From a virus (Duplodnaviria; Caudoviricetes): a stretch of 26,450 bases of DNA. How positions within the stretch are numbered: position 1 is the stretch's first letter; each line of letters opens with the position of its first letter. This document shows positions 1-26,450 of this stretch, one piece after another. The DNA is taken from positions 1 to 26,450 of the IMG/VR virus record IMGVR_UViG_3300032233_001145, one strand, 5' to 3'. Made by a program: the position numbers and the translations under genes. The notes under the pieces were generated by a model. The model worked only from the letters and a program-made list of their open reading frames with translations. It made no database searches and was not told where the DNA came from.

Positions 1-1
1 A

Positions 2-1129
2 AATTCAACGTCTGCTTCATACGCATTAACAGCTTCATTTGCATTAAATGGTGGTGGTGGTGGTGTAGCATTTCCTTATACTGGTAGTGCTCAAATTACT
101 GGTAGCTTAGGTGTTACAGGTTCATTTACTCAACAAACAGGATATACTATTTTACCTACTGTTTCTTCATCATTAAATTTTGTTGATGATGATGCTGCAG
201 CAACGGGCGGAGTTCCATTAGGTGGTGTTTATAGAAATGGAAACTTTTTATTAATAAGAATAGGTGGTGTAAGTGGAAGTGCTCCTACAGCTTCAGCTTA
301 TATAGTTGCTACTGGTGGTACAGTAACAACATCTGGTTCTTATAAAATTCATACTTTTAATTCTTCAAGTACTTTTACAATTTCATCTGTAGGTACTGAT
401 CCTACTGATGGAAATAAAGTAGAATACTTAGTAGTTGGTGGTGGAGGTGGATCAGCAGGAGCTAGCTTTGGTAACTATGGTACTGGTGCTGGAGGTGCAG
501 GTGGCTATAAAGCTGCTGCAGGTTTTACTGTAACTGCTCAAGCTTATTCTATTACTGTTGGTGCTGGTGGTGCAGGTGGTGCTCATGCTACTAATTCAGG
601 AGATAGAGGTATTAATGGTACTAATGGTGGTGATTCAATATTTGATACTATTACTGCTAAAGGTGGTGGATATGGAAGTAACTCAGCAGGTGCTGGTGGT
701 GCTGGAGGATCTGCTGGTGGAGGAGGTGGTGCACAATCAGGAGGTACTGCTGATGGTACTTGTGGTTGTGGTAACAACGGTGCTGGAGGAAGTAGTGGTT
801 CACCTTATAATGGTGGTGGAGGAGGAGGAGCTGGTGCTGCTGGAAACGGTGGTGGATCAGCAACTGGAGGTATTGGTCTTCAAAATAGTATTTCAGGCAC
901 TAATATCTACTACGCTGGAGGCGGTGGTGGTGGTAATAGTCAAGCTGGAGGAAATGGAGGAGGAGGTACCGGTGGAACACAATCAGGATTGAATGGTAGT
1001 GCAGGTGCAAATGGAACTGCTAATTTAGGTGGTGGTGCTGGTGGTACTGGTAACAACGATACTGGTACTGGTCCAGATGGTGCTAATGGTGGTTCAGGTG
1101 TAACAATTATAAAATATAAATTTCAATAA
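2..1129 (+). CDS. C-terminal part of tail fibre protein (SASYA-type repeats followed by a glycine-rich domain); 5'-truncated
   Basis: Frame 2 reads NSTSASYALTASFALNGGGGGVAFPYTGSAQITGSLGVTGS...IVATGGTVTTSGSYKIHTFNSS...VEYLVVGGGGG...GGSGVTIIKYKFQ* with TAA at 1127-1129. It is absent from the ORF track because its start lies outside the window. Confidence 0.85.
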   Translation, partial: NSTSASYALTASFALNGGGGGVAFPYTGSAQITGSLGVTGSFTQQTGYTILPTVSSSLNFVDDDAAATGGVPLGGVYRNGNFLLIRIGGVSGSAPTASAYIVATGGTVTTSGSYKIHTFNSSSTFTISSVGTDPTDGNKVEYLVVGGGGGSAGASFGNYGTGAGGAGGYKAAAGFTVTAQAYSITVGAGGAGGAHATNSGDRGINGTNGGDSIFDTITAKGGGYGSNSAGAGGAGGSAGGGGGAQSGGTADGTCGCGNNGAGGSSGSPYNGGGGGGAGAAGNGGGSATGGIGLQNSISGTNIYYAGGGGGGNSQAGGNGGGGTGGTQSGLNGSAGANGTANLGGGAGGTGNNDTGTGPDGANGGSGVTIIKYKFQ

Positions 1130-1132
1130 TAT

Positions 1133-1480
1133 ATGTCACATTTTGCTAAAGTTAATTTAGAAGGAGAGGTTGAAAACGTAATTGTTGCAGAACAAGAATT
1201 TATAAACACACTATCAGGAAACTGGGTTCAAACCTCATATAACACAATTGGAGGTGTACACAAATTAGGTGGTACTCCACTTAGAAAAAATTATGCGGGT
1301 ATAGGTTTTACTTATGACCCTAATAGAGATGCATTTATTCCTCCGAAACCATACCCAAGTTGGATTTTAAATGAAGATACATGTCAGTGGGAATCACCAG
1401 TTTTATGCCCAACAGATGGTAGATTATTTGAATGGAATGAAGAAGAATTAAATTGGGAAGAAAGAATTAAATCATTATAA
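1133..1480 (+). CDS. Phage protein associated with Gly-rich tail fibres (possible fibre accessory/chaperone)
   Basis: MSHFAKV...WVQTSYN...RKNYAGIGFTYD...DAFIPPKPYPSW motif, directly after the Gly-rich fibre gene. Confidence 0.7.
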   Translation: MSHFAKVNLEGEVENVIVAEQEFINTLSGNWVQTSYNTIGGVHKLGGTPLRKNYAGIGFTYDPNRDAFIPPKPYPSWILNEDTCQWESPVLCPTDGRLFEWNEEELNWEERIKSL

Positions 1481-1481
1481 C

Positions 1482-1613
1482 ATGTCAGTATCACTTTCAG
1501 GATCATTAGCAGTAACAGGATCAGTAATTGCAACTTCATTTACAGGTAGCCTACAAGGTGCTGTGCAAAGTAATGATGTTTACAGTTACACATTCTTATT
1601 GATGGGAGCTTAA
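1482..1613 (+). CDS. Small 43-aa virion-associated protein ending FLLMGA
   Basis: MSVSLSGSLAVTGSVIATSFTGSLQGAVQSNDVYSYTFLLMGA*; fills the intergenic gap and shares the VTGS/FTGSL motifs of the fibre protein. Confidence 0.6.
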   Translation: MSVSLSGSLAVTGSVIATSFTGSLQGAVQSNDVYSYTFLLMGA

Positions 1614-1636
1614 AATAAAATTATTAAACAAAATAT

Positions 1637-1960
1637 ATGGCAACAACATACAAAATATTAGGCCAAATAACAGGATCAGTTTCAACAGCATCATTATACA
1701 CCTCACCAGCAGCTACTCAAACAGTAGTATCTAGCTTAGTAGTAGCTAATAGATCAACATCTAACTCTACTTACTATATTGCTGTTGTTCCTTCAGGTTC
1801 AACTTTAGAAGTAAATGATTGGTTAGCATTTAACGTACCAATTTCAGGTAGTGATAGTACAGCATTAACATTAGGTATTACATTAGGTGCTTACGATCAA
1901 ATTCAAGTATCTGGTTTAGCAACAGGATCTTTCAATTTATTTGGAAGCCAAATATCATAA
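1637..1960 (+). CDS. Small beta-rich tail fibre-associated protein
   Basis: MATTYKILGQ...LGITLG...FNLFGSQIS, located in the fibre cluster. Confidence 0.65.
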   Translation: MATTYKILGQITGSVSTASLYTSPAATQTVVSSLVVANRSTSNSTYYIAVVPSGSTLEVNDWLAFNVPISGSDSTALTLGITLGAYDQIQVSGLATGSFNLFGSQIS

Positions 1961-1963
1961 TCT

Positions 1964-2740
1964 ATGTCAGTAGTAAATTTAAGAAGATACTCATTCGCAA
2001 CAGGACTTACAAAAGGAGGTGACTTTGCAGATATTCCTTATGTAGCACCTAGTGATATTATAATTAGTACTACCAATCTACAATTAAATACTGATGCTCA
2101 AAATACAACATCAAATCCAGGATCAGGAACTACATGGTTTGATTTAACAGCAAATGCATACAATGGTACTTTAACTAATGGAGCTGCATTTACAGCAGGC
2201 ACTCCAAAGTATGTTTTATTAGACGGATCAAATGACTATGTTACTTATGGAGATATTTTAGGAGCCCCAGCAGCAATTACACTTCAAGGTTGGTGGTATG
2301 GTACTAATATTAATGGTGCTGGTATTAACATTATGGCCGCTTATTGGACAGATACTGGCAATCAAAGATCAATTATATTTGGTCACAATATTGACAGTGG
2401 ACAAGGACCAGGAGTATTATTAGATAGATCAGGTACTTTTAGTGACGTACTTAAAGTTCAAAAAGGATCTCAATTATCAAATAACGTTTGGTATCATTTA
2501 GCATTTACTTTTAATGGTCAAACTGCAATAATATACCAAGACGGTGTTCAAATAGCTACTGGTGCTTATGGATCAAACTCAGCATTATTTAATTCATCAG
2601 ATCCTCTTTATGTAGGTAGAGATGGTCAAGGTAGATATTGGGGAGGCAGAGTAGGTGAATTTGATTGGTACAACGCAGCAATAAGTGGTGCAACTGTACT
2701 ATCTAACTTTAACGCAACTAAAGCAGCATATGGAAAGTAG
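1964..2740 (+). CDS. LamG / concanavalin A-like lectin domain tail protein (candidate receptor-binding protein)
   Basis: GSGTTWFDL, LDGSNDYV, NVWYHLAFTFNGQTAIIYQDG and LYVGRD...WGGRVGEF are typical of Laminin_G_3-like domains. Confidence 0.8.
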   Translation: MSVVNLRRYSFATGLTKGGDFADIPYVAPSDIIISTTNLQLNTDAQNTTSNPGSGTTWFDLTANAYNGTLTNGAAFTAGTPKYVLLDGSNDYVTYGDILGAPAAITLQGWWYGTNINGAGINIMAAYWTDTGNQRSIIFGHNIDSGQGPGVLLDRSGTFSDVLKVQKGSQLSNNVWYHLAFTFNGQTAIIYQDGVQIATGAYGSNSALFNSSDPLYVGRDGQGRYWGGRVGEFDWYNAAISGATVLSNFNATKAAYGK

Positions 2741-2990
2741 AAAATATATAATATTTGACGTTTCAGAACTAATTAAAATTAATTTTGATGAAGTAATGGA
2801 AACGTCTTCGAATACACTTAGAGTATCATTAGACGGCTCTAAAACGTTTGTTAAATATACTTCAGACGATATGCCTACAAGTGTATCTAATTTAACAACT
2901 AAAATAGGTCCATTTGATGAAATGGAAATGAACGTTACATTAGGTAACGCTGATTGGACAATACCATCCCCAACAACAGGTAGTTTATAA
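2730..2990 (+). CDS. Hypothetical protein accompanying the LamG tail protein
   Basis: ATG at 2730 overlaps the LamG stop; MESRKYIIFDVSEL...RVSLDGSKTFVKY. Confidence 0.6.
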   Translation: MESRKYIIFDVSELIKINFDEVMETSSNTLRVSLDGSKTFVKYTSDDMPTSVSNLTTKIGPFDEMEMNVTLGNADWTIPSPTTGSL

Positions 2991-3009
2991 ACACACAAAA
3001 ATAATAAAA

Positions 3010-3234
3010 ATGCCAATTCCACAACGCAAACAAGGAGAAGCTGAAGATACATTTGTATCAAGATGTATAGGTGACTTATCAAGCGAATATGATACACCAC
3101 AAGCAGCAGCTATATGCTATCAACAATTAGCAGTTCATCTAACAATGGACAAAGAATGGCGCAAGTCATTTATAAATTCGCCAGAAGCTACATGTCTTAC
3201 ACAATACAAGCACGTAGGTTCGAACATCAAATGA
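3010..3234 (+). CDS. Small head-module protein (MPIP...FVSRC...QAAAICY)
   Basis: 74-aa ORF with A-rich start context, immediately upstream of the scaffold gene. Confidence 0.6.
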   Translation: MPIPQRKQGEAEDTFVSRCIGDLSSEYDTPQAAAICYQQLAVHLTMDKEWRKSFINSPEATCLTQYKHVGSNIK

Positions 3235-3248
3235 GGATAACACGTATC

Positions 3249-3262: not shown

Positions 3263-3276
3263 AATTCAAAACTAAA

Positions 3277-4050: not shown

Positions 4051-4090
4051 TAAGTAAAAATAATTAATTAAAATTAAACATTTAGTAAAA

Positions 4091-5098: not shown

Positions 5099-5644
5099 AT
5101 GGCATGTAATATTTCATTAGGATATAATGAACCTTGTAAAGACAGTATAGCTGGTCTTACCGCCGTGTATTTCATGAATTACAACACAGGAAGCTTTACA
5201 TTAAATGCTACTGACGTTGTAACTGCATTCCCTTCAGCATCTACTGCTTATAAGTATGAATTGAAAGGAACTAATGGATACACAGAAACTGTTAACACGT
5301 CACGTGATAATGGTACTACTTTCTTCTCTCAAGTGTTAAGCTTACAATTGAAAAAATTGGAAGCAACTGCAACTAAAGAGTTGAAATTATTGGCTTATGG
5401 TAGACCAAAAATTGTTGTAGCAGATAGAAACGGTAATGCGTTTTTAGTTGGTAAAAATGAAGGTGCTGATATGACTGGTGGTACAATTACTACTGGTACA
5501 GCATACGGAGATTTATCAGGATACACAATGCAATTTACTGGTAACGAAGTTCTACCAGCTAATTTCTTGACAGGTTCAACATTAGCAAACCCATTCGCTG
5601 GTGTTTCTAATGCTCCTACTATCGTTTACGGTACAAATAGCTAA
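5099..5644 (+). CDS. Putative major tail (tube) protein
   Basis: 181 aa and beta-rich; MACNISLGYNEPCKDSIAGL...YKYELKG...GTTFFSQVL...GDLSGYTMQFTGNE; follows the capsid gene. Confidence 0.65.
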   Translation: MACNISLGYNEPCKDSIAGLTAVYFMNYNTGSFTLNATDVVTAFPSASTAYKYELKGTNGYTETVNTSRDNGTTFFSQVLSLQLKKLEATATKELKLLAYGRPKIVVADRNGNAFLVGKNEGADMTGGTITTGTAYGDLSGYTMQFTGNEVLPANFLTGSTLANPFAGVSNAPTIVYGTNS

Positions 5645-5680
5645 TACAGGGTTTCACAATACTCTGTCCACTATAGCTCT

Positions 5681-5719
5681 ACATAGATAGCTCCCTGTTC
5701 TGGGGGGCTATCACTATGT
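5681..5719 (+). terminator. Stem-loop after the putative tail tube gene
   Basis: ACATAG-ATAGCTCCC-tgttct-GGGGGGCTAT-ca-CTATGT, an extended imperfect inverted repeat. Confidence 0.55.
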
Positions 5720-5744
5720 TCATCAAATAAAAATACAATTAATG

Positions 5745-5750
5745 GTTATA
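5745..5750 (+). promoter_or_regulatory. Putative late promoter box GTTATA
   Basis: Follows a hairpin; AAAAT-N10-GTTATA, 5 nt before ATG 5756. Confidence 0.45.
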
Positions 5751-5755
5751 GCAGT

Positions 5756-6127
5756 ATGATAGTAGTATCCCCAAATACCAGTGCAACAGGTTCAGTTAGA
5801 TTTTCTGTGCGTACACGACCTACATCTTCACTTGGAACATTCGTTGTTAGAATGAATTATATAAATGAAGAAAACCAAAAATCAGGTAGTGTAACAGTAA
5901 CTGCATCCTATAGTTCAACTGATTTTTTAAACGTAACAGCATCACTATATGCTTCAGCTAGTAATTTTTATAGCTTTCAACTTATACAAATGAGTGGCAG
6001 TGTAGAATGTAATGAATTATATCGTGGAGAATTATTACCAACAACATCATCAGCAACAATAGTAAATAGTCAACCATTATTCTCATATACTGGGAGTAAT
6101 GATACATTTATAATATATTCAGTTTAA
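5756..6127 (+). CDS. Hypothetical virion protein (possible head closure/decoration)
   Basis: 123-aa Ser/Thr-rich ORF between tail tube and portal; GTTATA box just upstream. Confidence 0.5.
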   Translation: MIVVSPNTSATGSVRFSVRTRPTSSLGTFVVRMNYINEENQKSGSVTVTASYSSTDFLNVTASLYASASNFYSFQLIQMSGSVECNELYRGELLPTTSSATIVNSQPLFSYTGSNDTFIIYSV

Positions 6128-6128
6128 T

Positions 6129-7436
6129 ATGGAAAATCAAAATACAATACCTAACGGAAACGGAAAAGGTGTAGTTAAAGTAATTAATTTATCAGGTGGG
6201 TACATTTTACCTAGAATATCTGAATCAACAAATAAGCGTAAAGCCTGGGTTGAATTTGGTATTGATGGTATGGATGATTTCTTCAATACATTAATCAAGC
6301 GTTACGAAACATCTCCAACCAATCAAGCATGTATTGATGGTACAACAGATTTAATTTATGGTAAAGGTATTAAAGCAAAAGATAGATTAGATTTAGAAGA
6401 ATATCTTTACACATTAACTACTGAAGACGAAATCCGTAAAATAGTATTTGACTATAAATTATTTGGTAACGCAGCAATACAATGTGTATTCAATGCAGAC
6501 AGAACTAGAATAGTTAATTTCTATCACTTACCATCAGATACAATCCGTGCTGAAAGAGTAAATGATCAGGGTATTATACCTGGATTTTATTATTCAGCTG
6601 ATTGGACAAACAAAAATATTAAACCAAAATATATTCCTGCATTTGGTCAAAACCAATTTGAAGATGATGTACAGGTAATTTATATGAAGCGTTACGCTCC
6701 AGGTAAATTCTATTATGGTATTCCTGATTACTACTCTGCAATTCAATATTGCGCTGTAGAAGAAGAAGTATCAAACCTACATTTAAACAATATATTAAAT
6801 AACTTCATGCCTAGTACAATCATTAACTTTAATGGTGGTGTACCAGCAGTTGAAGAACAAGCGATGGTTGAAAATAGCATTGCAAACAAATTTACAGGTA
6901 CTACAAACGCAGGTAGATTCATTTTATCATTTAACGATAATCCAGAATATAAAACAACTGTTGAGATGTTACGTCCAGAAAACTTACATCAACAATACGA
7001 CTTTATAGCTGAAGAATCATCTCGTAAGATTATGTTAGCACATAGAATTACCTCACAAATGTTATTCGGTATTAAAACAGCAAACGGATTTAGTTCAAAC
7101 GCTGATGAATTAAAAACATCATACGAAATTATGTTGGCATTAGTTATTCAGCCTTTTCAACAAGAGATAATTAAAACAATACAAGGTATAGTTGAATTTA
7201 ATGAAATTGATGGTGAATCATTATATTTCTCTCCACTTATCCCATTCGGTTTCTTAGCTGAATTAATGGATGATGCAGGTGCAGCTAATGCTAAAGCAAT
7301 GATTGAAAACCCAAATGCTGATTTGCCTGATGCAGTTGCTACACCAGCAGAAGGTGATGGTTCAATGGCTCCAAATCCTAACGAAACAATAGGTGATGTT
7401 GTAGGACCAGAAAATACAGGTGAACAAGGAACTTAA
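6129..7436 (+). CDS. Portal protein
   Basis: 435 aa; SPTNQACI...IYGKG, DYKLFGNAAIQ, YYGIPDY, KFTGTTNAGRFILSF, IMLAHRITS...LFGI, VIQPFQ match phage portal architecture. Confidence 0.85.
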   Translation: MENQNTIPNGNGKGVVKVINLSGGYILPRISESTNKRKAWVEFGIDGMDDFFNTLIKRYETSPTNQACIDGTTDLIYGKGIKAKDRLDLEEYLYTLTTEDEIRKIVFDYKLFGNAAIQCVFNADRTRIVNFYHLPSDTIRAERVNDQGIIPGFYYSADWTNKNIKPKYIPAFGQNQFEDDVQVIYMKRYAPGKFYYGIPDYYSAIQYCAVEEEVSNLHLNNILNNFMPSTIINFNGGVPAVEEQAMVENSIANKFTGTTNAGRFILSFNDNPEYKTTVEMLRPENLHQQYDFIAEESSRKIMLAHRITSQMLFGIKTANGFSSNADELKTSYEIMLALVIQPFQQEIIKTIQGIVEFNEIDGESLYFSPLIPFGFLAELMDDAGAANAKAMIENPNADLPDAVATPAEGDGSMAPNPNETIGDVVGPENTGEQGT

Positions 7437-7456
7437 AAAATTAAAAATAGAAGATA

Positions 7457-7972
7457 ATGAGTTTAAATATTTTATTCTGCTCCAGAAATGATATAGTTAA
7501 AAGAACACCATTAGGTGGAAACGTTGACCCCGATAAAGTAATACCGTTTGTAAAAACGGCTCAAGACAAATATTTGTTGATTGCTCTAGGTACTGTGTTA
7601 TACAATTATTTACAAACACAAGTTGCAGCAGGTACACTAACTGGCAATTATAAAACATTAGTTGATGATTATATTATAGATACTTTAGTACATTATGCAA
7701 TGGTTGAAGCATTACCGTTTTTAGCTTATAGTATAGGCAATACAGGTATTACTAAAAACCTAAATTCAGAGCAAGGTGCATCACCAAACAAAAATGATAT
7801 TGATTATCTGTTACAAAAAGAATTAGCAACAGCCCAGTTCTATGCTGAACGTTTAGTTAACTACTTGATTGCACAAAATACTCTATATCCACAATACACA
7901 GCAACTACAGGATTCAGTGATAACGTATATCCAGACAAGGGTCAACAATACAGAAACGGATGGGTGATCTAA
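7457..7972 (+). CDS. Putative head-tail adaptor protein
   Basis: Helical 171-aa protein directly after portal; GNVDPDK...AQDKYL...LGTVLY. Confidence 0.55.
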   Translation: MSLNILFCSRNDIVKRTPLGGNVDPDKVIPFVKTAQDKYLLIALGTVLYNYLQTQVAAGTLTGNYKTLVDDYIIDTLVHYAMVEALPFLAYSIGNTGITKNLNSEQGASPNKNDIDYLLQKELATAQFYAERLVNYLIAQNTLYPQYTATTGFSDNVYPDKGQQYRNGWVI

Positions 7973-8130
7973 ACAAAACATATCTAGGCTATAAACCTAA
8001 AGATGATAATATAGTTAAACTAACGCAGTATCTGCGCGCTAAAGGCGTTTTAACAGCTCCAAAAAACGCGTTAAATACTAAGTTTACTAATTTAGCGTCA
8101 AATAAAATATTACGCAATAAACGCTTTTAA
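7960..8130 (+). CDS. Small basic 56-aa protein
   Basis: MGDLNKTYLGYKPKDDNIVKLTQYLRAKG...NKRF*; overlaps the upstream stop and ends 2 nt before the next ATG. Confidence 0.5.
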   Translation: MGDLNKTYLGYKPKDDNIVKLTQYLRAKGVLTAPKNALNTKFTNLASNKILRNKRF

Positions 8131-8132
8131 AC

Positions 8133-14140: not shown

Positions 14141-14146
14141 GAAAAA

Positions 14147-14737: not shown

Positions 14738-14748
14738 AATAAACACAC

Positions 14749-14898
14749 ATGATACAAAATATAGACATAGAAAGTATTGTTACAATGATGAAAATGTTGC
14801 CTAAGCAATATAACACACCAGCAATTAAAGTAGCAAAAGGTAAAAATAAATTACCAACAACATTAAGAGAAATAATTAAAAAGTTTAAAAATGGCTGA
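14749..14898 (+). CDS. Small 49-aa protein preceding the tape measure gene
   Basis: MIQNIDIESIVTMMKMLPKQYNTPAIKVAKGKNKLPTTLREIIKKFKNG*; overlaps the tape measure start. Confidence 0.55.
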   Translation: MIQNIDIESIVTMMKMLPKQYNTPAIKVAKGKNKLPTTLREIIKKFKNG

Positions 14899-18280: not shown

Positions 18281-18624
18281 TGTTTAACGCAATAAGATCA
18301 TATCAGGATAAGCTTAACAAATACGCTGAATTAGGTCGCAAACCTAAAGACACATTAGTTATAGCTGATAGTAGAGAGTTAGCAGAAGAGATAAAGCAAA
18401 ACATGATTGATGAATCTGAATTAGCTGGTCATAATAATACTGGTACAATGGAAAATAGTTTCAGTGTAAGACCAAACGGCGGTGGTGATTATGCTATTAA
18501 AGGAGTTGATTATACTAAGTACGTAAATGGTAGAGATAGAGAAGCAGATGGTAGTGGATTTGTAGATGATGCTGTAAATCAAGCATTACTCGATTTAGGC
18601 GGTGACGCTGAAGTAATAATTTAA
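18280..18624 (+). CDS. Hypothetical protein (weakly gp10/neck-like)
   Basis: 114 aa, TAATG-coupled to the protease gene; NTGTMENSFSV...DYTKYVN. Confidence 0.5.
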   Translation: MFNAIRSYQDKLNKYAELGRKPKDTLVIADSRELAEEIKQNMIDESELAGHNNTGTMENSFSVRPNGGGDYAIKGVDYTKYVNGRDREADGSGFVDDAVNQALLDLGGDAEVII

Positions 18625-18626
18625 TT

Positions 18627-18893
18627 ATGGAAAATATTTATACAGTAATTATAACTGCAATAACCACATTAGGTGGAGCAAGTGCATGGAGATATTTCGA
18701 AAAACGAGCATCACACAAAGAGGACGATGAACGTTTTATTCGCAATGATTGCCAGAGTAGAATTACAAAATTAGAAGCATTATTAGAAAAAAGTTCAGTA
18801 GAGAAGGACGAAATGAGACAACAGATACTAGGATTAGTAGCTGAAGTAGCAGCGTTAAGAACCGAAATTAAGTATTTAAAAGATAGTAAGTAA
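18627..18893 (+). CDS. Putative holin-like membrane protein (one N-terminal TM segment plus coiled coil)
   Basis: IYTVIITAITTLGGASAW is hydrophobic and followed by a coiled coil; last gene before a terminator. Confidence 0.5.
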   Translation: MENIYTVIITAITTLGGASAWRYFEKRASHKEDDERFIRNDCQSRITKLEALLEKSSVEKDEMRQQILGLVAEVAALRTEIKYLKDSK

Positions 18894-18933
18894 ACGTTTT
18901 GGTATTCATGTACCATTTGTGTGTTTATGTGTA

Positions 18934-18960
18934 GCCCCGTTAGAAATAACGGGGTTTTTT
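18934..18960 (+). terminator. Rho-independent terminator of the late operon
   Basis: GCCCCGTTA-gaaa-TAACGGGGT followed by a T run. Confidence 0.85.
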
Positions 18961-19135
18961 ATGCCAAACATTGGCTACAATTCTTCCCTCCAAACGGAGA
19001 AACTATTACAGGTGCTGTGTGCAGAAAAACGGCAACCGGGAACGTTAAACCCCGTTGAACCGATTAAATCGGTCCCGTGTTGATCCACTCCAACCTTGCC
19101 ATTAACTAGTGGGACACGTTGACATTACAGTCGTT
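18961..19135. other. GC-richer, hairpin-dense non-coding element (candidate ncRNA or replication origin)
   Basis: At least five stems: GCCAA/TTGGC, CTCC/GGAG, CAAC(C)GGG/CCCGTTG, ACCGAT/ATCGGT, CGTGT..CCACT/AGTGG..ACACG. Confidence 0.45.
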
Positions 19136-19236
19136 ATGTTTATCTATGTGCAGCAATGAACTATTACATTATGCTTGTGTGCGATTATAAATATAGCAAA
19201 GAACTCTGCCCATATGAAGAAAAATAATTTTATTTC

Positions 19237-19269
19237 TTTGGTGTTTTGAAAGATAGGACGTATATTTAT
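19237..19269 (+). promoter_or_regulatory. Bacteroidota sigmaA-like early promoter
   Basis: TTTG (19237-40), 20-nt spacer, TATATTTA (19261-68) versus consensus TTTG-N~19-21-TAnnTTTG; 18 nt upstream of ATG 19287. Confidence 0.55.
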
Positions 19270-19286: not shown

Positions 19287-19655
19287 ATGGAAATAACAAA
19301 ATACTGTTCTAAATGCGACACAACAAAACCAATTGAACAATTCTCCAAATCAAAACGTAGCGCTGATGCATATAGCTATACGTGCAAGTCATGTATTAAA
19401 GTATATCAATTAGCCAATAAGGAAAAACTTAAAGCGTATCAACGCGAATACCAACCACAATACAAGGCGGAACATAAAGAAGAATTAGACCAATATTTAA
19501 AAAATTGGCAGAAAGCTAACCCAGAAAAAGCACGTGCACATGTAGCAGCATCTAAAGCTAGAAATGCTGAACATTATAAAACATACCAACGTGAATGGGC
19601 ACGTAAAGATAGGTTACGTAAAAAATTAGCTAAACAACAACAGCCTAATGACTAA
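19287..19655 (+). CDS. C4 zinc-ribbon protein with basic helical tail (HNH-associated N-terminal type, no nuclease domain)
   Basis: KYCSKCDTTKPIEQFSKSKRSADAYSYTCKSC; ATG at 19287 preferred to TTG at 19269. Confidence 0.7.
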   Translation: MEITKYCSKCDTTKPIEQFSKSKRSADAYSYTCKSCIKVYQLANKEKLKAYQREYQPQYKAEHKEELDQYLKNWQKANPEKARAHVAASKARNAEHYKTYQREWARKDRLRKKLAKQQQPND

Positions 19656-20157
19656 TAGCCAATTAGTAGAACAAACGTATCGCAAACATCATACCTGGTT
19701 ACTTCAAGTATCATATAATTTTACCAATAGTAAAGATAAATCACAAGAATTAGTTCAGGATTTATATCTTAAATTAATGGAATATAAAGATGTTACTAAA
19801 ATAATGTTTAAAGATGATGTTAATTTATTTTACTTATATAAAATGTTAAGATCAATTTATTTAAACGGCTTAAAACGCTCAAAATCAAGTCTACCATTAG
19901 ATGATGATTTATTAAACAAACCAGCAGATGAATATTCTTATGAAGCAGATAACGATTTTGAACGTATGTTGGAATTAACAAATCAAGCATTAGATGAATT
20001 TAACTGGTTTGATAGTCATTTATTACGTGTTTATTTAGATGAAGATCATTCAATACAATCATTACATAAAGCAACAACAATATCAGCATCAACAATTTGG
20101 TCATCACAACAAAAAATAAAAAAATATGTTAGAGAATATGTCAACAAAAACATGTAG
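19648..20157 (+). CDS. ECF-like RNA polymerase sigma factor
   Basis: 169 aa; region 2 SQELVQDLYLKL...YLYKMLRSIYLN; region 4 HTH SIQSLHKATTISASTIW. Confidence 0.7.
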   Translation: MTNSQLVEQTYRKHHTWLLQVSYNFTNSKDKSQELVQDLYLKLMEYKDVTKIMFKDDVNLFYLYKMLRSIYLNGLKRSKSSLPLDDDLLNKPADEYSYEADNDFERMLELTNQALDEFNWFDSHLLRVYLDEDHSIQSLHKATTISASTIWSSQQKIKKYVREYVNKNM

Positions 20158-20644
20158 AGCCTGTAAGCAAGACAAACCAATAGAATGTTTTAATAAGGAT
20201 AAATCTAGAAAAGATGGTAAATGTCCTAGATGTAAAGCGTGTGATTTAGTAGCTACATCTAAATGGAGAGAAAATAATTTAGTTAAGAAAAATATATATG
20301 ATAAACAGTTTTATTATAAGCATAAAGCTAAGTATGATGAAATGGTTGATGTAAAACATAATAGTATTGATCCAGCTATCTATATGATTAAAAATATAAT
20401 CAATGGTAAATGTTATATTGGTACAAGTAAAGCACCTTATAGACGTGTTTATCAACATCTATCATATCGTAAAGATTTAAATAGTAACTATCCAAGCCCA
20501 TATGAATTAGCATGTGATATTGACAAATATGGTAAAGGAGCGTTTGTGTGGGGAGTAATGGAACATGTGACAAAAGAAAATAAATTCACTAAAGAACGTG
20601 AATATATAAGTATATATCAACCTGAATACAATAATAGAAAATAA
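20138..20644 (+). CDS. C4 zinc-ribbon plus GIY-YIG endonuclease
   Basis: CRACKQDKPIECFNKDKSRKDGKCPRCKAC followed by AIYMIKNIINGKCYIG...RRVYQH...KEREYI...PEYN. Confidence 0.75.
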   Translation: MSTKTCRACKQDKPIECFNKDKSRKDGKCPRCKACDLVATSKWRENNLVKKNIYDKQFYYKHKAKYDEMVDVKHNSIDPAIYMIKNIINGKCYIGTSKAPYRRVYQHLSYRKDLNSNYPSPYELACDIDKYGKGAFVWGVMEHVTKENKFTKEREYISIYQPEYNNRK

Positions 20645-20645
20645 T

Positions 20646-20813
20646 ATGAAACTAGGAAACTTTGTGGAAAAATTAATAGCAATCGTTACATTAGGATATG
20701 GACATCGTATTGCACAGTATGTGGCTAATAAAATGGGTTATGAATCGTGTGGATGTGAAACGCGTAAAGAATGGCTTAATACGTTATTTGTAAAAAAAGA
20801 CATAAAATTATAA
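20646..20813 (+). CDS. Small 55-aa CGC-motif protein
   Basis: MKLGNFVEKLIAIVTLGYGHRIAQYVANKMGYESCGCETRKEWLNTLFVKKDIKL*; fills the gap exactly. Confidence 0.65.
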   Translation: MKLGNFVEKLIAIVTLGYGHRIAQYVANKMGYESCGCETRKEWLNTLFVKKDIKL

Positions 20814-20814
20814 C

Positions 20815-21099
20815 ATGACACTAGAACAAGCACAAGAAGTTAAAGACATTCTAAAAACAATACACGACCATATTCCAGCAACACATGTTGACAGAATATT
20901 TCATTACTATAAAAGTTATATTGATCCACATGCTGGTAAACCTTGTACATGTAGTCCTAAAGACTGGAATAGAATGTTAATTGAATTAAAAAATAAAGTA
21001 GAAGCTACATTAGCAAGTTATGAACAAATACAAAATCAACCAGAAGAAAGTACCTCATCCAAACGTGGTAGGAAAAAAGGAATTAAAACAACTTTATAA
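20815..21099 (+). CDS. Hypothetical protein with PCTC motif
   Basis: 94 aa, KPCTCSP, basic C-terminus. Confidence 0.6.
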   Translation: MTLEQAQEVKDILKTIHDHIPATHVDRIFHYYKSYIDPHAGKPCTCSPKDWNRMLIELKNKVEATLASYEQIQNQPEESTSSKRGRKKGIKTTL

Positions 21100-21103
21100 T
21101 ATA

Positions 21104-21367
21104 ATGGAATCAATTAAATATGAAACAAATCCTATGTCTGATGAGGAACGAGACAAATTAAATAAAGAATATAAAATAGGTCCTTATCGTGAGTGGACAA
21201 TTAGTTTACCTAGGATGAAAGAAATAGAGAAAATAGTTAGTGATATACATACTCATTATGGTCCTAAAACAATGAGTAAAAAACCATTTGGTGCTGGATT
21301 AGGAACAGGTAAAAGACAATTAGAAGCAGAACGAGAAAAATTAATATCAGAAATAGAAAATGGCTAA
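21104..21367 (+). CDS. Hypothetical protein
   Basis: ATG at 21104 avoids overlap with the upstream gene (ORF track start 21020). Confidence 0.5.
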   Translation: MESIKYETNPMSDEERDKLNKEYKIGPYREWTISLPRMKEIEKIVSDIHTHYGPKTMSKKPFGAGLGTGKRQLEAEREKLISEIENG

Positions 21368-21485
21368 ATCATCAGCGGGCAGAGTAACTAAATTAACATT
21401 TGGTAAACGTAAATCAGGTAAAGCAAAAAAATCATATGGACCAACAGAACAAAAACCTAAGCGTTATAGAGGACAAGGACGTTAG
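21360..21485 (+). CDS. Small basic 41-aa protein ending YRGQGR
   Basis: MAKSSAGRVTKLTFGKRKSGKAKKSYGPTEQKPKRYRGQGR*; C-terminal YRGQG(R/K) motif recurs in aquatic phages. Confidence 0.65.
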   Translation: MAKSSAGRVTKLTFGKRKSGKAKKSYGPTEQKPKRYRGQGR

Positions 21486-21666
21486 TGAACAAGAAGCAGT
21501 ACGTGAATACGTTGATGCTATAGAAAATAACATTGAATACTTTAAAGAGTGGGCTGCTATCTATAAAACACAAAAAGATATAGCACAACAAAAAGTAAGT
21601 ATTTTAGAAATGAAGGTTTTACAATTAACAGAAATAATAAGACAGTACCAAAATGGCACAATGTAG
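21436..21666 (+). CDS. Hypothetical coiled-coil protein
   Basis: ATG 21436; helical heptad pattern. Confidence 0.5.
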   Translation: MDQQNKNLSVIEDKDVSEQEAVREYVDAIENNIEYFKEWAAIYKTQKDIAQQKVSILEMKVLQLTEIIRQYQNGTM

Positions 21667-21907
21667 ACAATGTAGTAAATGTAAAGAAATAAAACCATTA
21701 ACTGAATACTATAAACGTAGTCAAAGTAAAGACGATGGTGTAGCTAGACAATGTAAAATGTGTACTAACGCTAACTACAAAGCATATTGGAAACGCACTG
21801 CAATTAAACAATCACAAAAACGACATGCTAGACAAATACGGGTTGATATACAAAATAACGAATACAACAAACCAGAGATATTACATTGGGAAAAAATGTC
21901 TGCATAA
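21653..21907 (+). CDS. C4 zinc-ribbon protein
   Basis: RQCSKCKEIKPLTEYYKRSQSKDDGVARQCKMC. Confidence 0.65.
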   Translation: MAQCRQCSKCKEIKPLTEYYKRSQSKDDGVARQCKMCTNANYKAYWKRTAIKQSQKRHARQIRVDIQNNEYNKPEILHWEKMSA

Positions 21908-22157
21908 AGGTAAAGCATGGGACAAATACTGGGGTAGTAGTAAGGATTTAATAGCAGATATGAAGATAATAGGTAAGGATAAATTCAATAAAGAAGTATT
22001 ACAATATTGTGAATCCAGCTATGAACTCAGTTACTACGAGATAGAACATATGATCAAACACAATTGGCTCAGTGATGATTGCTATAATCAGAATATGAGC
22101 GGACGATATTTTAAATCAAAATTAACACATAATGAAAACAGAAACAACACGATTTGA
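21825..22157 (+). CDS. Stand-alone GIY-YIG (Seg-like) nuclease domain protein
   Basis: YGLIYKITNTTNQRYYIGKK...YWGSS...FNKEVL...LSYYE...YNQN. Confidence 0.7.
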   Translation: MLDKYGLIYKITNTTNQRYYIGKKCLHKGKAWDKYWGSSKDLIADMKIIGKDKFNKEVLQYCESSYELSYYEIEHMIKHNWLSDDCYNQNMSGRYFKSKLTHNENRNNTI

Positions 22158-22452
22158 TGCCATAATTGGTAAATTAGATGAACCCGCATTAGACCCAAAT
22201 GCATTTTACTTATTAGATTTAGACAAAATCAATACAATTGATGATGTTAAAGCAGTATTTAATGCGCTTGGATTTAATTTCATAGGTAACCATCCACGCA
22301 TTACTATGATAGCGCATTTGTTAAATAGAAATAATCCAATATATCCACCTGCAGCATTTGAGGTAGAAACGGATTTGAGTAAATTAGATGATTATCCTGA
22401 TGTAGTATCAGCAGACGGATATGCTACTAATGAGAATGAAATTGCTGAATAG
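22132..22452 (+). CDS. Hypothetical protein
   Basis: 106-aa ORF with acidic C-terminus. Confidence 0.5.
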   Translation: MKTETTRFDAIIGKLDEPALDPNAFYLLDLDKINTIDDVKAVFNALGFNFIGNHPRITMIAHLLNRNNPIYPPAAFEVETDLSKLDDYPDVVSADGYATNENEIAE

Positions 22453-22488: not shown

Positions 22489-22803
22489 ATGCCATTCATA
22501 GCAGGAGAAGTAACAGGTAGACCTAAAGGAAGCGAAGGTAAAGATACCAAACGCGTTCGTGAAGCGATCACAGCAATCACTGAAGGCGGTATAACAAGTT
22601 TAAATGAATGTTTTGACGAAATAAGACAAGATAATCCAGCTAAATTTGTTGAATTGTACTTGCGATTATTAGAATACACAATGCCTAAATTAAGGTCAAT
22701 TGACAATAATATTGATTTAAACGATTCACTAATACAAAAAATAACAGTAGAAGTCAATGCCAAGAGACCTCAACATACAAGCGACGACAGTATTTCAGAA
22801 TAA
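22489..22803 (+). CDS. terS: Putative terminase small subunit
   Basis: MPF...GRPKGS N-terminal motif; directly upstream of and overlapping terL. Confidence 0.65.
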   Translation: MPFIAGEVTGRPKGSEGKDTKRVREAITAITEGGITSLNECFDEIRQDNPAKFVELYLRLLEYTMPKLRSIDNNIDLNDSLIQKITVEVNAKRPQHTSDDSISE

Positions 22804-24001
22804 CTGGGATGCAACTACTCGTTTTGTAGTTAATATTGGTGGATCACGTTCAACAAAAACATACTCAATACTCCAATTATTGATTGTTAAAGCATTAGAA
22901 AGTGTTGAACCATTAGTTATATCAATTGTTAGGAAATCCCTACCATCACTCCGTATTAGCGTGATGAGGGATTTCTTTAACATACTTAAATCGCTCGATT
23001 TATATAATGAAGAATTACACAATAAAACTGAAAACACATATCATTTAGGCAATTCAATAATTGAGTTTTTTAGTATTGATGATGCACAGAAACGTAGGGG
23101 TACTAAGCGTGATATACTGTTTGTAAATGAGGCAAATGAAATTACTTATGAGGACTTCTTTCAATTAAACATTAGAACAACAACACAAGTATATTTTGAC
23201 TTTAACCCATCAGAAATATTTTGGTACAACGATCAAATACAAACTAGAGATGATATTACAATCATTCATTCAACATATAAAGACAATCCTTATCTTAATG
23301 ATGATCAGATTAAAGAAATCGAACGTCTACAACACACTGACAAACAATACTATCAGATTTATGCATTGGGTCAGTTTGCAGGATCCATTGATCGTATATA
23401 TCAGTATATACCTGTTGATGATATACCTGTTGATGTAGCTAAATTAGTAGCATTAGGAATGGACTTTGGATTCACTAATGACCCAACAACATTAGTTGAG
23501 GTTTGGAAAGACAATAGAGACAATATCTGGTTGAATGAATTAGTTTATGAGCAAGGCTTAACAAACGGCGATATTGCTGCTTTATTAGGCCAATATGGAG
23601 TTGATAAGTATATTGAAATAATAGCTGATAGCGCTGAACCTAAATCGATTGAAGAATTAAGGCGCTTTGGATATAACATTAAACCAGCACACAAAGGCCC
23701 AGATTCAATTAATAATGGTATTGATATATTGAAACGCCACATAATTCATGTTACTAAACAATCAGTTAATTTGATTAAGGAACTAAACAATTATAAGTGG
23801 GTAACAGATAAAAACGGAAATAAATTAAACAAACCAGTAGATATGTTTAACCACGCTTTAGATGCTGTACGTTATGTAGCACTTAATAAAATGAAAGTAG
23901 AAAATAAAGGTAGATACAACATAAGCATTGTAGGTAGAGATGGTGAATTATCTAGAGCAATTACAGGACAACAAAATTCAAAAACATACGCAATAAGATA
24001 A
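22757..24001 (+). CDS. terL: Terminase large subunit (PBSX/SPP1-like)
   Basis: Walker A GGSRSTKT, Walker B ILFVNEANE, coupling motif DFNP, STYKDNPYL, nuclease GMDFGFTNDP, ADSAEPKSI, NHALDAVRY. Confidence 0.92.
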   Translation: MPRDLNIQATTVFQNNWDATTRFVVNIGGSRSTKTYSILQLLIVKALESVEPLVISIVRKSLPSLRISVMRDFFNILKSLDLYNEELHNKTENTYHLGNSIIEFFSIDDAQKRRGTKRDILFVNEANEITYEDFFQLNIRTTTQVYFDFNPSEIFWYNDQIQTRDDITIIHSTYKDNPYLNDDQIKEIERLQHTDKQYYQIYALGQFAGSIDRIYQYIPVDDIPVDVAKLVALGMDFGFTNDPTTLVEVWKDNRDNIWLNELVYEQGLTNGDIAALLGQYGVDKYIEIIADSAEPKSIEELRRFGYNIKPAHKGPDSINNGIDILKRHIIHVTKQSVNLIKELNNYKWVTDKNGNKLNKPVDMFNHALDAVRYVALNKMKVENKGRYNISIVGRDGELSRAITGQQNSKTYAIR

Positions 24002-24002
24002 C

Positions 24003-24695
24003 ATGAAATTAACAATTACATACCCTGATAGTTGGGCTGAAGTAAAATTATCACAATATTTAGAATACACTAAGCATGTAAAACCTTGGACAGAAACAGA
24101 AGAATATGCTGAAAGATCAATACAATCAGCATTGCTACATTTTTGTAAAGTACCTGTTGAATACATAAATAAATTACCTAAAGCAGTAGCTGATAAAGCA
24201 TCTGTAAAATTAGGAGAATTATTTACTGATATAAACAAAAAACCGTTAGTAACAGAATTTACTGTTGGTAGTACAGTGTATGGTTTTATACCTGCACTAG
24301 ATGATATGACATATGGTGAATATTTAGATTTAGTTGCTTACACTAAAAAGGATATGTGGGATAATATTCCTACAATTATGTCTATTTTATACAGACCAAT
24401 TACAAATCGCGTAGGTAAATTATATACAATAGAACCATACTCAGGTACACCTGAAACTAGAATAGAATTATTTAAACACATTCTAACAATGGATGTTGTA
24501 TTTGGAGCTATTGGTTTTTTTTTAGGTTTGCAGAAAGACTTACTGATAGGTACCCTGACTTATTCAATGGAGGAGATGAAGAAGACCAAGGACCCAGAAA
24601 CATTAGCCATACTGCAGGATTTAACGAAAAATGGTCAGGATATAGTACAATCGCAATCTTATCTAATAACGACCTTACGAGATTCGACACTATAA
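24003..24695 (+). CDS. Putative tail assembly chaperone (gpG-like), 0-frame product
   Basis: PDSWAEVKLSQY, YGFIPALDDMTYGEYLDL, IMSILYRPI; contains a T9 slippery tract at 24515-24523. Confidence 0.6.
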   Translation: MKLTITYPDSWAEVKLSQYLEYTKHVKPWTETEEYAERSIQSALLHFCKVPVEYINKLPKAVADKASVKLGELFTDINKKPLVTEFTVGSTVYGFIPALDDMTYGEYLDLVAYTKKDMWDNIPTIMSILYRPITNRVGKLYTIEPYSGTPETRIELFKHILTMDVVFGAIGFFLGLQKDLLIGTLTYSMEEMKKTKDPETLAILQDLTKNGQDIVQSQSYLITTLRDSTL

Positions 24696-24796
24696 CTGAA
24701 TATCCAGTACATAAATGCTTAACGTACTTATCATATCTAAAAGATTACAATGAATTGCAAGTACAACAAGCTAAACAATACCAAGCATTTAAGTAA
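24003..24796 (+). CDS. Putative -1 frameshift product of the tail assembly chaperone (gpGT-like)
   Basis: After GGT TTT TTT TTA the -1 frame has no ATG yet stays open for ~91 codons to TAA at 24794-96: FRFAERLTDRYPDLFNGG...KWSGYSTIAILSNNDLTRFDTITEYPVHKCLTYLSYLKDYNE...AFK*. Confidence 0.65.
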
Positions 24797-24930
24797 ATTT
24801 GGATTGGGCAAAATTATTGACGTAACTTCTAATTCGCTGGTTCAATTATTAACCGATTAATAAAACTGGTTGAATAGAAAAAATGTAGCAATGGTTGAAA
24901 TGAAATCACGTTCTGTGGTTACAATGTTAG

Positions 24931-25149
24931 ATGAAAAAATACTTTTCTAGTCGCGATACTCGATATGCAATTGAGGAAAAACCATCACCGAAATTTTCGT
25001 ATGGTTTAAATGTGCCTGGTTCACCCGCTTTTCAAGCATGTTTATGTGCTGATAAAGATAACTTAACCTATAGCAAGAAATGTTGCAAGGGTTATTTATT
25101 TAATCAAGGCATCGGTAACATCACGGCGCCATATTCAGGTAGTATATAA
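24931..25149 (+). CDS. Small Cys-rich protein (CLC...TYSKKCC), copy 1
   Basis: MKKYFS...ACLCADKDNLTYSKKCCKGYLFNQGIGNI. Confidence 0.7.
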   Translation: MKKYFSSRDTRYAIEEKPSPKFSYGLNVPGSPAFQACLCADKDNLTYSKKCCKGYLFNQGIGNITAPYSGSI

Positions 25150-25394
25150 TGAAAAAGTATTTTAGTAATAAAGTAACAAACCCAAACGCAAGCAGAGATG
25201 CACCTAATTTCTCGTATGGTAAATCAGGTGTTAGAGGTGGTTCACAACTAGCATGTTTATGTGCAAATAGAAAAACATATAGTAAAGAATGTTGTAAGGG
25301 TTACTTACTAAATCAAACAATTGGAAACATTATTTCACCATATCCAAATGCTGGAAGAGCATTTAATGAAGGATTTAGTGATGGATTCTCTTAA
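25149..25394 (+). CDS. Small Cys-rich protein (CLC...TYSKECC), copy 2
   Basis: MKKYFS...ACLCANRKTYSKECCKGYLLNQTIGNI...AFNEGFSDGFS; TAATG-coupled paralogue of the previous gene. Confidence 0.7.
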   Translation: MKKYFSNKVTNPNASRDAPNFSYGKSGVRGGSQLACLCANRKTYSKECCKGYLLNQTIGNIISPYPNAGRAFNEGFSDGFS

Positions 25395-25405
25395 TAAACT
25401 AAAGT

Positions 25406-26450
25406 ATGCCGTACAGTCGCAGTGATATATTAAATCAAAACACATCAGATTTTCCTAATAATAATTCAGGACAAATTACACCTGCAATATTAAGAGATTT
25501 TAATGCTAATTTTGTTAACTCAGTTCAATTCATAGGCGATCCTACAGATAGCGCTTCATACGCAGTATCAGCATCATTTGCTGTTTCATCTTCATACGCA
25601 GTAAATGCTAGTAATGCTAATACAGCTACATCAGCGTCTTATGCACTGAATTCAACATCAGCTTCATACGCATTAAACGCAACAACAGCTTCTTACTCAA
25701 ACACATCAACGTCTGCAAGTTATGCTTTAACAGCATCATTTGCTCTAAATGCACCAACAATTGATACAGGTAGTTTTGTAACTACATCTTCGTTCAATGC
25801 ATATACTGCATCAACAAATACGTTTACTCAGTCTATACAAACGCAAGTAAACAGTTTAGCTGCAGCTACTTCATCTTATGTGACAAATAGCCAAACTAGC
25901 AGTATGAGCGTTTTAAGCGCTTCATTTGCAGCTACAGCTTCATTTTTAACTGGTGCAGTTACATCAGCGTCATTTGCTACATCAGCGTCTTATGCTGTAA
26001 ATGCTACATCAGCATCTTTTTCTCAAACAGCAATAAGTGCATCATATGCTCCTGATACTACTTTTCCTTATACTGGGTCAGCTAGAATAACAGGATCATT
26101 AGGTGTAACGGGTAGTGTAAATGCAACCTCATTTACAGGTTCATTATTTGGAACTGCCTCTAGAGCAGATAATGCTACATCAGCATCATACGCTTTAAAC
26201 GTAACAACAGCATCTTATTCAAACACATCAACATCAGCTTCATTTTCTCAAACAGCAATATCAGCTAGTTATGCTTCACAAGCACAGAATGCAGTTAGTT
26301 CATCATTTGCTTCTGCAGCTATATCTGCTTCATTCGCATCAACAATAGCAAGTGGTTTAAATATCACTGCATCAAACATATTAGTAACAAATAACTTAAC
26401 TGTAAATGGTACAGCATCATTTGGTTATACTAAAACAGTTACAGGCTCAG
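25406..26450 (+). CDS. N-terminal part of tail fibre protein with Ser/Ala/Thr repeats; runs off the window
   Basis: MPYSRSDILNQNTSDFPNNNSGQITPAILRDFN... then many (T/S)SAS(Y/F)A units and FPYTGSARITGSLGVTGS; no stop before 26450; missing from the ORF track. Confidence 0.85.
   Translation, partial: MPYSRSDILNQNTSDFPNNNSGQITPAILRDFNANFVNSVQFIGDPTDSASYAVSASFAVSSSYAVNASNANTATSASYALNSTSASYALNATTASYSNTSTSASYALTASFALNAPTIDTGSFVTTSSFNAYTASTNTFTQSIQTQVNSLAAATSSYVTNSQTSSMSVLSASFAATASFLTGAVTSASFATSASYAVNATSASFSQTAISASYAPDTTFPYTGSARITGSLGVTGSVNATSFTGSLFGTASRADNATSASYALNVTTASYSNTSTSASFSQTAISASYASQAQNAVSSSFASAAISASFASTIASGLNITASNILVTNNLTVNGTASFGYTKTVTGS

Follow-up and report, generated by a model that had tools for sequence, protein, structure and literature searches.

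Satellite phages that build a capsid of their own and lack key replication genes are already known. The Streptomyces satellites MiniFlayer and MulchRoom encode their own terminase, portal and capsid, carry no key replication genes and depend on a large virulent helper (PMC10690885), and Ando and Aci01-2-Phanie have been grouped with them as replication-less satellites with their own capsid (PMC13587820). Among autonomous phages, the closest described relatives of the genome studied here are the Nonlabens phages P12024S and P12024L of the genus Inhavirus and the environmental viral genomes (EVG) of Flavobacteriaceae group 1, with genomes of ~30 kb. We analyzed IMG/VR record IMGVR_UViG_3300032233_001145, positions 1 to 26,450, of a Caudoviricetes virus (in the following, the window, i.e., this whole stretch of 26,450 nt). 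It encodes virion genes homologous to those of P12024S, and no recognizable replication genes or endolysin. We propose, giving it about an even chance of being right, that it represents a satellite virus making its own particle and borrowing lysis and probably the replisome from an Immutovirus-like myophage of the same Bacteroidota host.

The window and the P12024-like phages share homologous capsid, tube, portal, adaptor, neck, distal tail (Dit), hub, protease, TerL, chaperone, and sigma factor genes, arranged in blocks that resemble each other. Identities to P12024 of 33% for the portal and 38% for the protease place the window within the homology limit of EVG group 1, whereas core proteins only 21-42% identical and the absent replication/lysis module set it outside the genus Inhavirus. 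P12024S carries primase, helicase, Erf, exonuclease, single-stranded DNA-binding protein (SSB), endolysin, and holin, a set lost in the window clade, where SAS[YF]A fibres and another late motif were acquired in turn. The accessible text of the papers on group 1 phages (PMC5332604, PMC7198788) does not mention a replication-less subgroup; their supplementary EVG tables may include clade members.

In comparison with MiniFlayer, MulchRoom, and Ando, which measure 13-17 kb and reportedly do not encode a long tail (relying on the helper tail or short helper-binding fibres), the window stands out by its 28.8 kb, a likely complete siphovirus tail, its own sigma factor, and a traceable autonomous ancestry. 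It shares the lack of an integrase with MiniFlayer and a GIY-YIG nuclease with MulchRoom (PMC10690885). Helper dependence was observed for these satellites and is inferred for the window. A search of 50,697 phage records with the major capsid protein (MCP), not extended to TerL and portal, gave no kinship to MiniFlayer or MulchRoom; P12024L/S were its sole matches (4 records). The sequence-only reading had suggested that this element could be the inverse of known satellites; MiniFlayer and MulchRoom provide precedents for it, as both encode encapsidation genes without key replication genes (PMC10690885). P4, PICIs (phage-inducible chromosomal islands), and capsid-forming PICIs (cf-PICIs) have helper-dependent lysis in common with the proposed satellite, but they integrate, have replicases, and take their capsids or tails from others (PMC10690885). 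The PICI-like element (PLE) of Vibrio cholerae, which parasitizes phage ICP1, integrates and uses helper virion parts, whereas the window has its own virion genes; its lone DnaD-like initiator, active only during helper infection, serves as a model for initiator-only clade members (PMC7145576). With neither integrase nor replicase or initiator found and with tail-gene homologues of its own, the window lies outside the PICI, cf-PICI, P4, and PLE classes. By its own capsid and packaging genes and with no replication genes detected, within the sensitivity of profiles and outside an unread 2.3-kb gap, it is a candidate satellite virus, whose links to a helper are indirect. No account of the clade or of the structured element described below was found in the literature outside subscription papers and supplements.

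Both window ends lie within ORFs (open reading frames) carrying SAS[YF]A repeats, the one from 25406 onward being open at its 3' side and the one up to 1129 at its 5' side. That the gene order closes into a circle, as had been read from the letters, was borne out when closure across 26450->1 was checked. A contig of run X1 (10,499 nt, depth 19, + strand) matches window 26093-26450 with its positions 1-358 (0 differences) and window 1-7809 with its positions 2691-10499 (14 differences), both matches being taken as a single record by identical length, depth, and strand. It bridges the ends over a gap of 2,332 nt, giving a circle of 28,782 bp. From 25406 across the gap to position 2 there are exactly 1,126 codons, placing the fibre pieces in frame; this alone has a one-in-three chance, the gap being known by length and frame with its letters unread. 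The two pieces are likely one ORF of about 1,501 aa. X1 is possibly the source of the window itself and counts as a second assembly rather than an independent sample. Three relatives close by end overlap (G017, 275 nt, 97.5%; G021, 161 nt, 99.4%; G023, 275 nt, 98.2%), and G026 forms with L102, the closest relative (MCP 97%), a two-contig composite circle overlapping at both ends (92-95%). Within the window, no terminal repeats were prominent among the repeat families, and GC skew tracked the coding strand without an origin signal.

An artefact, in which the missing genes sit inside the gap or the contig was misassembled or derives from a deletion variant, is very improbable. The unread letters, the possibly shared source sample, and three small holes left by the X1 pieces listed (21208-21275, 23182-23185, and 25558-25620) would allow for it. 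It is countered by the frame across the gap, by relatives with one long fibre ORF at this place (1,383 aa in L102, holding homologues of both fibre ends; 1,995 aa in G017), and by four other closed clade genomes of 28.6-31.8 kb likewise without helicase and endolysin.

The reading that the window holds no replication, recombination, lysogeny, or endolysin genes withstood all searches applied. None of these families was detected in 41 window ORFs in Pfam and PHROGs, nor in subsets rescanned in PHROGs at E 0.1 and in NCBIfam, and 37 replication and lysis proteins of relatives gave no tblastn match to the window at E<=0.05. Integrase, repressor, partition, and addiction genes were likewise missing from the Pfam, PHROGs, and NCBIfam scans of the window. 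With the 37 reference proteins, helicase, primase, SSB, Erf, exonuclease, RusA, and endolysin were found in 0/15 clade loci, several of them partial; the sister group has helicase in 7/13, an initiator in 4/13, and endolysin in 9/13, with two incomplete genomes having neither helicase nor initiator. As the references came mostly from the sister group, clade ORFs were also scanned against whole libraries. Here, 64 ORFs in Pfam and 99 in PHROGs (the latter taken from 129 cluster representatives of 194 ORFs, excluding those already scanned or spurious-looking) yielded no endolysin or helicase and a single holin, in G018. ORF 20646 is the sole non-structural window ORF besides sigma present in at least 9 of 10 clade genomes; with only these two near-universal, a universal replacement lysin or initiator does not stand out. 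Tailed phages normally require an endolysin when their host is Gram-negative; that this gene is lost clade-wide without a universal replacement therefore speaks most strongly for dependence on another phage. As a correction to the first reading, a holin-like gene is present at 18627-18893.

Relatives were collected by scans with TerL, MCP, sigma, and protease (80 loci among the matches listed), and their longest contigs mostly measure 28-34 kb. In a six-gene FastTree of 35 genomes or loci rooted on P12024S, the window clade is monophyletic with support 1.0 and stands beside a sister group; its nesting among the P12024-like (Flavobacteriaceae group 1) phages is well supported. The expectation that replication-less circles would form a clade holds in part: the clade has full support, and helicase and endolysin occur in 0/15 of its loci, yet it is not uniformly replication-less, with an initiator-like gene in 5 of the 15. 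Run X4, a freshwater metagenome, contained short pieces related to the window. Of the 10 GTDB matches, nine are phage-like contigs of short length that sit in unrelated bins, and the tenth is a patch, likely chimeric, within an archaeal metagenome-assembled genome (MAG); none is an integrated copy, and they give neither host nor integration site. On the chromosome of a Woesearchaeota MAG (L307, CP070803.1:130686-151540), phage capsid and protease fragments are fused in chimeric ORFs, probably by misassembly. The TerL of G027 (L299:6491-7829) is divided between two ORFs and accompanied by a short inverted duplicate, either because the gene is broken or through an assembly artefact. Genes resembling glycosyltransferases, acetyltransferases, or methyltransferases, in part identified by eye, occur in several clade loci (L203:10667-13130, L185:2726-4571, L205:5615-6172, L235:5026-7959); a few have large-phage homologues, and they possibly serve virion or DNA modification.

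Between the holin-like gene and the sigma operon lies a slot whose contents differ among clade members. In the window this interval, 18893-19286, is not empty and comprises a terminator, a structured element that is conserved, and a pair of divergent promoters:

18933..18956, + strand: intrinsic-terminator-like hairpin with flanking A and T runs, suggestive of termination in both directions
18997..19186, - strand: conserved non-coding multi-branch structured element with covariation, in the slot of the DUF6291 gene of G016/G017
19188..19195, - strand: promoter-like core TATATTTA, facing the structured element
19238..19268, + strand: promoter-like TTG-N20-TATATTTA, heading the zinc-ribbon/sigma operon; of a type enriched in Immutovirus-like genomes

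In G016 and G017 (TerL 78-79%), the slot holds a minus-strand gene with DUF6291, which we take to be the N-terminus of phage replisome organisers; phrog_19415, also matched by the O-like initiator of G011, indirectly supports an initiator-like role. G022 has DUF1376 plus an AAA ATPase, L250 a DnaD-like gene, and L282 a gene presumed to be initiator-like. The other loci carry non-coding DNA, in the window, G027, G028, and L221 an element of ~190 nt behind the same divergent promoter. Its flanks are 10-11-nt direct repeats (19159-19168 and 19001-19010) that co-vary between lineages. Of 40 predicted pairs, 13 changed on both sides, and 97.5% of cells pair, based on four sequences, two near-identical, from which the structure itself was derived; 0/500 shuffles reach these values and slid controls are 32-41% paired. 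The case for the structure is made by this covariation; folding energy on its own is weak in the window (z of -1.0 over 236 nt and of -1.7 over the core), and alifold leaves the strand undecided (-36.3 vs -35.2). The element is probably an RNA. Rfam 15 gave no credible match for it (one chance match elsewhere, E 0.24) or for five related loci. It was not found among phages, plasmids, or 36 large-phage loci, nor in 151 Bacteroidota genomes in a search without positive control, and exact-pattern scans of IMG/VR returned just the 2 known loci. A second non-coding element of ~300 nt occupies the slot in G021 (L192:11661-11990) and L235:13541-13860 (92% identical; folding z -3.3 and -1.2, respectively), without an Rfam match. 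The simplest reading of these exchanges would be an exchangeable origin/initiator cassette.

As further observations at this slot, G029 (L205:4600-4700) has iteron-like tandem repeats of ~11-12 nt between divergent promoters, and four genomes carry a protein with a PD-(D/E)xK-like motif recognized by eye and no Pfam match, in L221 on the strand of the structured element and directly downstream of it:

L184:4754-5296 (-), L205:3797-4339 (-), L203:9027-9593 (+), L221:4241-4792 (-): PD-(D/E)xK-like protein of 181-189 aa

At or near the slot, 4/15 clade loci (G018, G021, L235, L282) contain a gene of 124-129 aa whose family comprises about 5,500 stretches in IMG/VR. In five large-phage loci read, on contigs of up to 163 kb, its homologues lie between divergent PolA and gp32-like SSB, RecA, 5'-3' exonuclease, DnaB, and ribonucleotide reductase. 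Among cultured phages, Flavobacterium phage immuto (Immutovirus, 160 kb) matches it at 70.5%, and at 88% for DnaB. In the 100 of 160 kb read, immuto encodes a full replisome alongside two annotated endolysins, one lysozyme, and one holin. The Immutovirus group and its conserved replication neighbourhood are described in PMC11348598; PMC7077304 does not mention immuto. The Immutovirus/divPolA1 phages of 155-190 kb (PMC11348598) share with the clade fibre repeats, a LamG protein, the replication-operon gene, and promoter motifs, and they are autonomous myoviruses, unlike the satellite proposed here. SAS[YF]A repeats occur in 7/9 clade genomes and both large genomes, in 0/9 sister genomes, and not in P12024S. 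ORFs matching G035, G036, or immuto number 19/377 in the clade versus 8/623 in the sister group plus P12024S (Fisher p 0.0009, genomes not independent). Four of 36 window ORFs match the large genomes, namely the fibre, LamG, ORF 2685, and a GIY-YIG; its core head, tail, and packaging proteins have no match in G035, G036, or immuto. G035 has a sigma-like protein to which the product of L250:11768-12634 (-) is homologous (25%, E 1e-12). From these shared genes, we infer Immutovirus-like myophages of 150-165 kb as candidate helpers. In this large-phage group, the conserved unnamed gene between divergent PolA and SSB (L360:9986-10438; NC_055915.1 gp002) has a predicted ferredoxin/RRM-like fold.

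The promoter motifs extend this comparison. TTG-N20-TATATTTA stands at the head of the sigma operon in 6/7 close genomes, and P12024S has there the host-type G form. In large phages, TTG-N20-TAnnTTTA counts 92 sites at spacer 20 versus 21-44 at others, with no such peak in host DNA (6; range 4-13) or the sister group (13; range 10-31). TATTTAT[AT] precedes 65/213 gene starts of large phages (6.9 expected), 3/248 of five Bacteroidota genomes (5.1), 6/190 of the sister group (3.4), and 8/208 of the clade (5.3). TAnnTTTG, which we take to be the Bacteroidota host promoter consensus, precedes 30/248 host, 18/190 sister, and 2/213 large-phage starts. GTTAT[AG], upstream of 47/208 clade starts versus 6.3 expected, is likely the clade's own late promoter, and the ECF (extracytoplasmic function) sigma factor likely drives its copies at 3248, 5744, 9135, 16732, and 22454. 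The 19238 site of the window fits both the bipartite class and the core preceding large-phage structural genes. At the level of motifs, the window promoter shows a kinship of transcription signals with large phages rather than dependence; taking the TATTTAT site as proof of helper-gated transcription was weakened by the promoter controls and dropped. Promoter-like sites of G035, G036, and NC_055915.1 fall into two clear classes: TTG-N20-TAT[AC]TTTAG is found in regions of small ORFs, and a core of TATTTAT precedes portal, sheath, tube, and terminase genes.

All called window genes lie on the + strand, and 15 of 25 tested P12024S genes match a window ORF. The virion and packaging genes are:

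25406..26450, +: N-part of the fibre with SAS[YF]A repeats (sequence, X1 contig, L102)
1..1129, +: C-part of the fibre, Gly-rich PF21722, phrog_2295 (Pfam, PHROGs)
1133..3234, +: variable fibre-associated genes (phrog_7759, phrog_1276, LamG, small ORFs; Pfam/PHROGs)
3277-4050, +: likely scaffold (gene order)
4091-5023, +: likely MCP (gene order; 31% to P12024S gp02)
5099, +: likely tail tube (gene order, P12024S homology)
6129-7436, +: portal (PHROG portal, E 3e-61)
7457, +: likely head-tail adaptor (gene order, P12024S homology)
8133 and 8648, +: likely tail completion and neck, in block 5099..9121 (gene order, P12024S homology)
9147..16726, +: likely distal tail and small tail genes (homology/order versus P12024S gp44-49)
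10451-14140, +: likely hub with Gly-rich tip (homology/order versus P12024S gp44-49)
14891-16726, +: likely tape measure (P12024S homology/order; hydrophobic segment)
16757..18280, +: prohead protease, PF14550 (Pfam, PHROGs)
block 18280..18893, +: neck1-like ORF (PHROGs)
18627-18893, +: holin-like ORF (phrog_2658, E 3e-7), without a strongly hydrophobic stretch and with no endolysin after it
block 22489..25394, +: likely TerS, then TerL (22757-24001; PF04466, PF17288; Pfam/PHROGs, P12024S homology)
24003-24695, +: likely tail assembly chaperone (P12024S homology/order)
also in block 22489..25394, +: two Cys-rich small ORFs

Named matches among the 41 ORFs scanned were TerL, portal, prohead protease, LamG, Gly-rich domains, a sigma region, two GIY-YIG, zinc ribbons, and the holin-like family. 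The full virion kit read from the sequence is thus secured by named families for TerL, portal, and protease alone; MCP, tube, adaptor, neck, Dit, hub, and tape measure are labelled by gene order and homology to unannotated P12024S genes, and the tail is likely complete. The MCP profile reached a best E of 0.59 against a solved capsid protein. The fibre N-part had no cultured-phage match with the low-complexity filter on. Immutovirus-like phages carry homologues of both LamG and ORF 2685. Tail assembly chaperones typically carry a frameshift extension; the 235-nt stretch 24696-24930, 3' of the chaperone-like gene, possibly encodes one.

The non-structural block contains:

19287..19655, +: zinc-ribbon protein resembling the DNA-binding part of an endonuclease, nuclease domain not found (PHROGs)
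19648..20157, +: ECF-type sigma factor (TIGR02937, Foldseek)
20126-20644 and 21825-22157, +: two GIY-YIG nucleases (Pfam/PHROGs)
21653-21907, +: second zinc ribbon (Pfam/PHROGs)
20646, 20815, 21020, 21360, 21400, and 22132, +: small ORFs without known family, in block 20126..22452

The inventory first given for 19287-22452 was right in its sigma factor, zinc ribbon, and GIY-YIG proteins, and overlooked a conserved 88-aa ORF at 21400-21666. The sigma factor has sigma-2 and sigma-4 domains (TIGR02937 E 4e-7, below the curated cut-off), and the top Foldseek matches of its predicted fold are ECF sigmas (E 2e-5). In the ESM Atlas, ORF 22132 had no match and ORF 20815 matched unnamed viral clusters only. 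For the second GIY-YIG, homologues were located on contigs of at most 26.5 kb, with T4-like Methylophilales phages and cyanophages as best cultured matches; hence, it gives no pointer to a helper. A 41-aa basic peptide (21360-21485), with homologues at varying positions in 6/10 clade genomes, is possibly a DNA-binding virion peptide.

If the satellite proposal is right, the window virus would infect by its own tailed particle, and the divergent promoters at 19188-19268 would be active chiefly or exclusively under co-infection. The structured element (in sisters, the lone initiator) would mark or prime the origin, where helper DnaB, SSB, and polymerase would be loaded as for PLE with ICP1. Its own sigma factor would turn on the virion operons, its own terminase would package the DNA, and progeny would be released on lysis by the helper endolysin. 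Speculatively, the GIY-YIG and zinc-ribbon proteins might be directed against the helper. We hold the borrowing of lysis more firmly than that of the replisome, which is less sure because initiator-only or RNA-primed routes could use host proteins; the DUF6291 gene of G016/G017 at the slot of the window's element makes such a host-run route possible. That a widespread, fully tailed satellite clade arose from an autonomous siphophage by gene loss and parasitizes Immutovirus-like myophages, with an RNA replacing the initiator in recruiting the helper replisome in the window lineage, appears unlikely; if so, a tailed dsDNA phage would replicate without any replication protein encoded by itself.

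The first proposal of a satellite borrowing replisome and lysis is partly backed, by the circle, the clade-wide gene absence, and a candidate helper group, and its dependence part is deduced from shared genes and losses. Several points weigh against it. Gene sharing is modest (5%) among non-independent genomes and could come from shared habitat or host; the replication-operon protein is not in the window, and its ferredoxin/RRM-like predicted fold is generic (best Z 6.3) and may resemble that of T4 RegA. The bipartite promoter class concentrates in small-ORF regions (12/22 and 14/23 sites in one 20-kb bin) and is, by this placement, probably the early class of the large phages and readable by host RNA polymerase; as an early class must be read by that polymerase, sharing it may reflect just a common host. 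Four sister genomes (G003, G005, G007, G011) also have TATTTAT before structural genes, and host-type promoters in the sigma-operon region of G021, G025, and L250 fit host-run replication, as do the initiator-like genes. Profile searches underlie the absences; six small ORFs belong to no family, and sigma was the only window protein folded. Finally, with integrase, repressor, and partition gene not found, the proposal does not account for how the virus would persist from one co-infection to the next; at a guess, it might attach to its helper like MiniFlayer.

The main rival is an autonomous minimal phage, which we consider possible but less likely than the satellite. It would be copied by the host replisome from an RNA-primed or structured origin (in sisters, through a lone initiator) and exit by an unrecognised lysis protein; ColE1, where a transcript serves host Pol I and RNase H as a persistent R-loop primer, offers the precedent of an RNA-primed origin copied by the host replisome. 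The swapping of initiator-like genes and non-coding structured elements at one slot, a TTG + TAnnTTTr promoter layout probably readable by host RNA polymerase, and the retention of a full tail and own sigma, dispensable to a satellite, all suit this explanation, and some duplodnaviruses are nearly devoid of replication genes and host-reliant (PMC11348598). It has no answer to the endolysin count of 0/15 without a universal small gene as substitute, and leaves unexplained both the capture of a large-phage replication-operon gene in 4 loci and the G-to-A promoter difference from P12024S. Quite unlikely is a host-run episome needing another phage only for cell breakage, perhaps as a late-gene trigger. 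Such an episome would solve the persistence problem and match an endolysin loss that is clade-wide next to a patchy initiator loss, as well as the missing integrated copy among the GTDB matches; the library scans found no partition, repressor, or addiction gene for it, and the element did not turn up among plasmids or, in the search lacking a positive control, the Bacteroidota genomes. Altogether, we regard the feature as real, with replication-less satellites having their own capsid being what is already known and helper dependence here being likely but unproven.

If the satellite proposal holds, the clade would show a route from an ordinary lytic phage to a satellite, with one tree uniting the autonomous outgroup, intermediates that have only an initiator, and end points that lack it, and with a cultured member of the candidate helper group at hand in immuto, whose host is Flavobacterium sp. 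LMO8. Among the virome genomes of ~30 kb that look complete and pass for lytic phages, some would then be parasites of large phages. If instead the autonomous explanation is true, the clade needs a novel Gram-negative lysis route and a protein-free origin, which would be worth finding as well. Either way, the 190-nt structured element provides a compact object open to testing.

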